From an uncultured delta proteobacterium (lineage in GTDB: Bacteria > Myxococcota_A > Polyangia > Haliangiales > Haliangiaceae), in contig CAWKDB010000010.1 in NCBI GenBank assembly GCA_963848295.1, forward strand, positions 1,728,001 through 1,792,000: DNA of 64,000 nt, given 5' to 3'. Numbering within the stretch: position 1 is the first letter of the stretch; each line of letters starts with the position of its first letter. The position numbers and the translations under genes were made by a program. The notes under the pieces are model-generated. The model made no database searches, was not told where the DNA came from, and saw only the letters and a list, made by a program, of their open reading frames with translations. This document shows positions 35,874-36,710 of this stretch, in pieces.

Positions 35874-35907
35874 CTAGCGATACGACGACGAGTTGAACCA
35901 CCACTCG
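35874..35907. repeat. 34-bp direct repeat, left copy (duplicate of porin gene 3' end)
   Basis: CTAGCGATACGACGACGAGTTGAACCACCACTCG identical to 36677-36710. Confidence 0.97.
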
Positions 35908-35933
35908 AGTTTCAGGTAGGCGTCGATTGGTGG

Positions 35934-35962
35934 TTGCAGATACAACTTATAACTTGTATAGT
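35934..35962 (+). promoter_or_regulatory. sigma70 promoter of hicAB with palindromic operator in the spacer
   Basis: TTGCAG-17 bp-TATAGT; ATACAA-cTTATAAc-TTGTAT palindrome at 35940-35959. Confidence 0.8.
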
Positions 35963-35968
35963 CAGGGA

Positions 35969-36157
35969 GTGGGCTCGAGGGAGATCCTGGCGGCATTGAA
36001 GGCGGACGGGTGGAGCGTCGTGAGGGTCAAGGGTTCGCATCACCAACTCGCGCATCCGAGGAAGCCGGGCATCGTCACCGTCAAACACCCCGCGAAGGAT
36101 TTTCCGATTGGCACGCTCAAATCGATCGAGAAACAGAGCGGGGTCAAGCTGCGCTAG
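35969..36157 (+). CDS. hicA: HicA toxin (mRNA interferase)
   Basis: LKADGWSVVRVKGSHHQLAHP...VTVKHP.KD.PIGTLKSIEKQSG. Confidence 0.95.
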   Translation: MGSREILAALKADGWSVVRVKGSHHQLAHPRKPGIVTVKHPAKDFPIGTLKSIEKQSGVKLR

Positions 36158-36173
36158 CCCATCAGGAGACACC

Positions 36174-36650
36174 ATGCGTTACTTCGCCAACATCACCAAG
36201 GACGACAACGGTTCGTGGCTCGTCGACTTCCCGGACTGTCCGGGTTGCGTGACGTTCGGAGACACGCGAGAGGAGGCCATCGAGCTCGCGCAAGAGGCGC
36301 TCGAAGGCTGGCTCGAGGCCAACCTCATTCACGGCAGCGTCCCTCCGCGTCCCAAGCGTCATATCGGAGCGCTCGTCGTAGTCCCGCCGCGGCTGGCTCT
36401 GTCGCTACAGCTTCGCTGGTTGCGCGACGAGCAGAAGCTGACGCAAGCCGAGCTCGCTCGAAAGCTCGGCGTATCGCAGCAGGCGATCGCGAAGCTCGAG
36501 AAGCCGGACAGCAACCCGACGATCGGCACCGTGATCGACATGGTGGAGGCGCTCCAGGGCGTGCTCGAGTTGACCGTCAAGCCGAAGCCTCAGGCATCGA
36601 CGAACAAGATCGTGCCGAATCCATCAGCGCGTCTTCGTTTCGAGCGCTAG
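36174..36650 (+). CDS. hicB: HicB antitoxin with C-terminal Xre-type HTH
   Basis: AGGAG RBS; VDFPDCPGCVTFGDTREEA...EAL; LTQAELARKLGVSQQAIAKLE. Confidence 0.95.
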   Translation: MRYFANITKDDNGSWLVDFPDCPGCVTFGDTREEAIELAQEALEGWLEANLIHGSVPPRPKRHIGALVVVPPRLALSLQLRWLRDEQKLTQAELARKLGVSQQAIAKLEKPDSNPTIGTVIDMVEALQGVLELTVKPKPQASTNKIVPNPSARLRFER

Positions 36651-36676
36651 CCGGAATCGCCTCATTAGGTCTTGCG

Positions 36677-36710
36677 CTAGCGATACGACGACGAGTTGAA
36701 CCACCACTCG
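36677..36710. repeat. 34-bp direct repeat, right copy (last codons and stop of porin gene)
   Basis: Encodes [10 protein letters not shown] on the minus strand. Confidence 0.97.

Follow-up and report, generated by a model that had tools for sequence, protein, structure and literature searches.

We found that a hicAB toxin-antitoxin (TA) pair stands at the 3' end of a LamB-family porin gene in the window, the 64,000-nucleotide stretch of DNA analyzed here, as a recent insertion without a recombinase of its own. It is one of at least three such TA islets at the ends of protein-coding genes in this genome, which comes from a soil myxobacterium known only from a metagenome-type assembly and is 85% complete. 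The islet was likely produced by recombination and would not be a dedicated element with mobility of its own. We hold with moderate confidence that it arose by one-sided homologous recombination together with an illegitimate joint, a reading transferred to this locus from a second islet with 208-bp repeats.

The 34-mer CTAGCGATACGACGACGAGTTGAACCACCACTCG occurs in identical copies at 35874-35907 and 36677-36710, with a spacing of 803 bp. Exactly these two places were found in the genome (7.78 Mb, 11 contigs), even when nine mismatches were allowed, which bears out the perfect end duplication reported in our first-pass annotation. The right copy (36677-36710, minus strand) was said to be the last 10 codons plus stop of the porin gene; it is this working 3' end and includes one further base. 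The porin gene itself (36677-38359, minus strand; PF02264, E 3e-18; start codon picked by eye) is intact, encodes a protein left unchanged by the insertion and is flanked by two alpha-amylase-family genes (PF00128). With the protein unaltered, the data lend no support to the suggestion in our first-pass annotation that the location may matter because LamB porins are phage receptors in enterobacteria. The left copy (35874-35907, minus strand) exactly matches the right one and is, as annotated, an orphan copy of the porin gene's last 34 bases. It starts one base past the stop, at 35872, of a Cys-rich gene (35252-35872, plus strand; 206 aa; no Pfam family matched), which is the convergent neighbor of the porin gene at the empty site. 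Between the copies lie 769 bp of unique islet sequence (35908-36676, no strand) that are absent from the sister genome G112 and have a GC content of 61%, compared to 68-69% in the flanks.

According to the first-pass annotation, the 803-bp unit holds only a promoter, hicA and hicB, and both genes stood up to analysis. The hicA gene (35969-36157, plus strand; 62 aa, GTG start) matches PF07927 over its full length (E 1.5e-21), and its translation retains an intact GSH motif. The hicB gene (36174-36650, plus strand; 158 aa) encodes a HicB domain (PF15919, E 9e-12) and an Xre-type HTH (PF01381, HTH_3, E 1e-13). Both genes are intact, and hicA lies upstream of hicB across a 16-bp gap, the gene order of HicAB type II TA systems. 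The islet thus encodes a predicted type II TA pair, with the toxin role of hicA and the antitoxin role of hicB taken from their families and gene order. The promoter was assigned by eye only, as a sigma-70 promoter scan of the islet gave no sites at its threshold; a terminator scan gave none either. A 20-bp inverted repeat (35940-35959; 9/10 pairs) and an overlapping -10-like hexamer, TATAGT (35957-35962), are seen on the plus strand at 35940-35962, within the ∼60 bases upstream of hicA. By what is generally known of hicAB, these are likely the HicB operator and the promoter of a probably leaderless hicA transcript.

G112 supplies the empty allele. This genome aligns to both islet flanks at 83-89% DNA identity, in two blocks that overlap by one repeat length, and it is clean at the islet site, where it holds a single repeat copy differing at 2 of 34 bases. 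Upon deletion of the unit in silico, the window aligned to G112 without gaps, and in both sequences a single base separates the two stops. As predicted from the sequence at first reading, removal of the unit restores two convergent genes. Across the last 600 bases of the porin gene, G112 and the window differ at 23 of 200 third positions. Since the two islet copies are identical while third positions differ to this extent, we infer that the insertion is recent.

Sequence contigs from other runs lend partial support to the junctions. Contigs from two studies bridge the left repeat copy with 0 differences, whereas in one run contigs reach from the insert into the right copy, which no contig bridges, so the spanning of both copies sought at first reading was obtained for the left one. 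The best-covering run may be related to the source of the window, and the second study is separate; the shares in runs X4 and X5 are small and have no bearing on habitat. No skipped (empty-allele) or circular joint was seen in four runs, a search of low power at contig depths of 2-5. The unbridged right copy would fit an assembly artefact. We consider an artefact highly improbable, given that the left junction is bridged without differences in two studies, that the insert-to-right-copy junction is covered in one run and that G112 has a precise empty site.

The first-pass annotation had also proposed looking for similar short TA islets elsewhere in the genome, and three more bracketed TA pairs were found. 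Five family searches, which do not make up a full census, yielded nine toxin loci, one of them below the cut-off, and a PF05973 search of the genome gave no matches. Repeats scoring ≥30 within 1.2 kb, with lengths of 34-208 bp, bracket 4/9 toxin loci compared to 4/400 random anchors; without the index locus the count is 3/8 versus 4/400 (Fisher p 1.7e-4). One of the additional islets (L153; G000:C10:2746640-2747301) is a parE-type pair flanked by perfect 34-bp repeats, which cover the stop codons of two convergent genes. Another (L154; G000:C2:1421901-1422897) is a parE-type pair with 208-bp repeats formed by the tail of a nucleobase-permease gene (PF02133). The last (L152; G000:C10:112775-113592) is a mazF-type pair (PF02452) bracketed by identical 64-bp copies of the 3' part of tRNA-Sec, with the repeat beginning at the anticodon loop. 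G112 has clean empty sites for all three islets located at protein-gene ends, namely the window islet, L153 and L154. At the tRNA-Sec islet it has other DNA after a single tRNA copy, and this islet has no tyrosine-recombinase match nearby. The repeat lengths, target genes and toxin families of the bracketed islets all differ, and their boundaries share no common motif.

The remaining 5/9 toxin loci have no such repeat. Four of these five were compared with G112, which has an intact TA pair at none of them and either other DNA or split flanks at each. At the counterpart (L211) of a vapC-type locus (L158; G000:C10:3448669 region), G112 keeps only the last ∼58 bases of the gene, behind unrelated DNA, a pattern that is a sign of TA turnover through a joint inside the toxin gene. 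A parE-like match at G000:C10:3914933-3915190 (L157) falls below the family cut-off, and its frame looks broken. For a reciprocal test on its own TA loci, G112 was searched for ParE and PIN matches and gave none. A genome-wide screen for repeats ending at the stop of a long ORF retained 43 of 21,729 repeat pairs, the majority of which are paralogues, repeat proteins and IS-like ends. The index islet was among those retained but both other protein-gene islets were missed, hence the screen is no census.

We next consider the porin junction in relatives. The C-terminal part of the porin was matched in 66 of 90 other genomes, and 64 porin loci (24 plus 40 fetched, covering not all 66 genomes) were examined, 62 of which include the stop codon. 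None of the 62 has intact hicAB beside the porin gene, and none of the 64 matches the 34-bp porin tail of the window exactly. The Cys-rich gene is convergent to the porin gene in 47/62 loci, one of which (L025) is from an unpublished genome (G010). The spacer between the two genes is ≤50 bp or an overlap in 33 of these 47; in 8 loci it measures 51-250 bp, and in 6 it exceeds 250 bp, with a maximum of 995 bp. Decayed hicB fragments were observed directly behind the porin stop in two genomes (L015:2834-2956 in G026 and L020:1367-1492 in G034), in the orientation opposite to that of the window hicB. Their similarity to other HicB relatives is no lower than to the window HicB, so they likely represent a separate arrival. 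Two further loci carry short orphan porin tails whose boundaries are unlike that in the window: 24 nt with 2 mismatches and a spacing of 81 in L140 (G076), and 14 nt, exact, with a spacing of 90 in L016 (G008). These two tails gave the top two scores of 59 loci. The fillings of varied size, the decayed hicB and the short orphan tails together mark the porin junction as a modest hot spot for small cargo.

Flanking repeats are uncommon at TA loci of relatives. Among 69 parE loci examined (29 plus 40, not all parE matches, with two from the unpublished genomes G010 and G075), 4 have a flanking repeat and 65 do not. In one of the four (L084, from the unpublished G010), the parE pair is set in a tRNA-like 74-bp repeat that resembles the arrangement at tRNA-Sec. 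The others (L292, L298 in G068 and L306 in G003) have repeats of 39, 101 and 149 bp, respectively, of a neighboring gene's sequence; those of L298 and L306 copy a gene tail, and that of L292 copies an inner stretch. In L298 the parE stop abuts the orphan copy, and in L306 the differences between the copies are, by eye, mostly synonymous. Of 22 hicA loci in the genus, one has a clear repeat (L053, 120 bp, an internal gene fragment), one has a repeat that is a second hicB copy (L046), one is ambiguous (L048) and 19 have none. For close HicB relatives, no flanking repeat was found at the 26 assessable metagenome loci (41 fetched, 15 too short) or at 8 loci in the genus, and on these counts we reject a conserved mobile family around the hicAB of the islet. 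The rarity of the repeat among related TA loci implies that it marks a minority of insertions, probably recent ones, and that it is no constant trait of this hicAB family.

Because the perfect repeat in the window has no polarity, the argument for a mechanism rests on the 208-bp islet. Its two copies differ at 15 positions, 11 of which are synonymous against an expected 24% (p 8e-5); the four amino acid changes are K/R, S/A, N/D and V/A. Both copies were thus once functional alleles, so that a local copy which later decayed is excluded at that islet. Of 12 informative sites, G112 has the orphan's base at 9 and that of the intact copy at 3, a split that is not significant against an even one (p 0.07) and has a p of 4e-4 against the 25% assumed for decay of the orphan. 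There is no internal switch point, and the first three informative sites are already orphan-like. The parE gene takes its stop codon from the orphan copy, which is what a joint made within the incoming gene would produce. When microhomology of 3-10 bp was looked for at this joint, an offset 6-mer was found. Taken together, the mainly synonymous differences and the closer match of the orphan to the G112 allele suggest that the gene likely received a new tail from incoming DNA, which displaced its old tail.

Applied to the index locus, this reading proposes that incoming DNA from a close relative would have carried a porin tail and hicAB. Homologous recombination inside the porin gene would have joined this DNA at one end, and the other end would have been joined illegitimately, 34 bases before the stop of the host gene. 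The incoming tail would then complete the porin gene, and the host's own tail would be pushed to the far side as the orphan copy. As the copies are identical, the donor would be of the same or a nearly identical species. Once in place, the repeat would allow precise loss of the unit by recombination, and, hypothetically, killing by HicA after the loss would select against it. Support for one-sided recombination comes from the empty site, the recurrence at TA loci, the unshared boundaries, the polarity at the 208-bp islet, the orphan porin tails in G076 and G008 and the distance of recombinases. A ComEC-family gene was present in 6/6 genomes searched, which permits DNA uptake and is no proof of competence. 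The lack of a donor with intact hicAB beside the porin gene among the 62 relative loci counts against this explanation. So does the absence of such a repeat from most TA loci (5/9 here, 65/69 parE and 26/26 close hicB), and a same-species donor with both flanks conserved would pass on the unit by double crossover, with no new duplication. No clear microhomology was found at the window joint outside the repeat, and some may hide in the first bases of the repeat.

Two alternatives also dispense with an integrase. A small circle, containing a porin tail and hicAB looped out of a donor chromosome, could have integrated by a single RecA crossover within the 34 bp. This would yield exactly the observed geometry, make the reverse reaction possible and fit the variable repeat lengths. 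However, 34 bp is short homology for RecA, and a circle predicts a switch from intact-like to orphan-like sites in the 208-bp islet, where none is seen; the first three orphan-like sites would place the crossover in the first 8 bp, outside the long perfect stretches. We therefore think integration of a circle unlikely. We regard as decidedly unlikely a local target duplication, in which foreign hicAB DNA would have filled a staggered break at the porin end, with the 34-base overhang duplicated in the process, a route that has been proposed for restriction-modification insertions. Duplication in place requires no donor with hicAB next to the porin gene and explains a perfect copy of the host's own sequence that none of the 64 relative loci shares. 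Both 34-bp islets are perfect and lie at junctions of convergent genes, and a staggered-break duplication could account for these two. It fails, though, at the 208-bp islet, with its mostly synonymous differences and more G112-like orphan, and for the mostly synonymous differences seen by eye at L306. In addition, we know of no DNase in HicAB that would make the break.

The first-pass annotation favored a mobile origin, as either a non-autonomous mini-element, possibly moved in trans by a tRNA-targeting tyrosine recombinase, or the remnant of a larger island. The part of this that held is an integrase-less insertion with an empty allele; no larger parent island was found. The imperfect palindrome and the word GGTTCAACTC are present as described. 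The repeat begins at the outer end of the palindrome (6/7 pairs; chance 2.7% at a fixed boundary) and holds GTTCRANTC (546 genome sites; ∼0.2% per 34-bp window), which together with 15 tyrosine-recombinase matches in the genome would suit site-specific integration in trans of a cis-mobilizable element. A crossover at the 5' edge would also predict a displaced native tail with the same polarity, and the mazF-type islet at tRNA-Sec starts at the anticodon loop, the classic integrase geometry. Yet both motifs reflect the codons for the conserved EWWFNS end of the porin, with the T-loop-like word coding for W-F-N-S, and the same 6-of-7 palindrome occurs in 22/57 porin tails of relatives with no such islet there. 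The center of the palindrome and the T-loop word do not coincide, no T-stem flanks the word, and the longest run common to the repeat and any of 66 tRNAs is 8 bases. We therefore read both features as coding by-products and reject tRNA mimicry and an att core at the palindrome. Repeats that start inside tRNA genes of this genome begin at TTC/GTTC or the anticodon loop, and the window repeat begins ∼10 bases earlier and runs on as porin sequence. A tRNA-type element would also be expected to introduce a tRNA tail rather than a perfect copy of this host's porin tail. The other protein-gene islets lack both motifs, and the sites have no common core. With 8 integrases of this genome as queries, 72 hicA/hicB relative loci gave no tyrosine-recombinase match. 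On the contig, the nearest tyrosine-recombinase match lies ∼780 kb from the islet and the only resolvase match ∼2.1 Mb from it, in a genome 85% complete in which large serine recombinases were searched only through PF00239. These results make a tyrosine recombinase acting in trans improbable. TA modules often outlast the rest of their island, and decayed hicB fragments occur at the same site in G026 and G034, as might be left by a larger integrative island that deletions had pared down to its addiction module. Those fragments point the opposite way, however, the unit contains no integrase fragment, and identical copies set against 23/200 third-position differences from G112 leave little time for decay. 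The largest filling among the 47 two-flank relative loci is 995 bp, and the same loss of everything but a single TA pair would have to have befallen three or four separate islands. An island remnant is therefore very improbable.

Integrative elements are known to restore the 3' end of their target gene, as do e14 and phage 21 in icd and the islands in guaA, with integrase-less derivatives known as CIMEs. The islet resembles these in that the target gene is completed and an orphan 3' fragment remains on the far side. It differs in having no integrase, no core common to the sites, no fixed boundary and no parent element that we could find.

A closer likeness is to the insertions with long target duplication described for restriction-modification genes by Furuta et al. 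2010 (PMC2853133), where the duplication is >30 bp, the insert is <20 kb and no other mobile element is present. In the passages compared, both cases are small addiction-type modules with no other mobile gene, a long, variable and unique repeat and a one-copy empty allele, and some of the restriction-modification repeats overlap the 3' end of a gene, as here. The hicAB islet shows a 34-bp duplication, an 803-bp unit, an empty allele and no other mobile gene, but its cargo is hicAB only, so on the account given there it works like this class and is no member of it (PMC2853133). The architecture itself is thus already known from restriction-modification insertions, as far as those passages describe it, and the TA cargo is what differs. 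There are two further differences: restriction-modification insertions invoke a DNase-made break, whereas the TA pair here comes without a DNase, and the copies at the 208-bp islet are alleles of different lineages, whereas in that class a single target was copied.

Homology-facilitated illegitimate recombination, described for Acinetobacter, Streptococcus pneumoniae and Pseudomonas stutzeri (PMC6382021), shares with our preferred reading, in the parts of that source compared, one homologous anchor, one illegitimate joint and the lack of an integrase, and it predicts a displaced native tail. The process is not shown there in myxobacteria, and the product at the islet is a duplication with no clear microhomology. 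In the excerpts available, chromosomal type II TA "genomic islets" are TA pairs that form islets by themselves (PMC7232551). Such islets (PMC7232551, PMC7167474) are like ours in being lone TA pairs between conserved genes, absent from relatives, at sites that take varied cargo and where TA genes decay; unlike here, no duplicated gene tail is described in the passages compared. According to the sections consulted, recombination in the core genes on either side can bring new genes into element-free hot spots (PMC5635113), and transformation can create duplications via existing repeats (PMC3784515). Our literature search, with most subscription journals outside its coverage, found no description of TA pairs whose insertion duplicated a gene tail.

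In the portion of a 2020 review that we compared, the mechanisms of TA movement and chromosomal integration are called unelucidated (PMC7167474). We tentatively propose, with considerable doubt, that TA pairs in these myxobacteria might spread as naked addiction cassettes that hitch onto host gene tails via host recombination. The duplicated tail would serve as a reusable handle for excision, amplification and re-integration, and post-loss killing would retain the cassette. If true, such a recombinase-free TA life cycle would answer how chromosomal TA systems integrate. With three protein-gene-end TA islets that have base-precise empty sites, one of them with polarity, an integrase-free route becomes testable. 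The significance is bounded by a mechanism that is inferred, by the majority of TA loci that lack the repeat and by an organism known from a metagenome-type assembly.

Lastly, we made two observations beyond the porin gene. The coding sequence of the second alpha-amylase-family gene (38776-40840) is divided between two frames and has one extra base compared to G112, which reflects either a recent frameshift or an assembly error. Further on, a 79-bp intergenic repeat is present in 2-3 tandem copies at 41421-41602.
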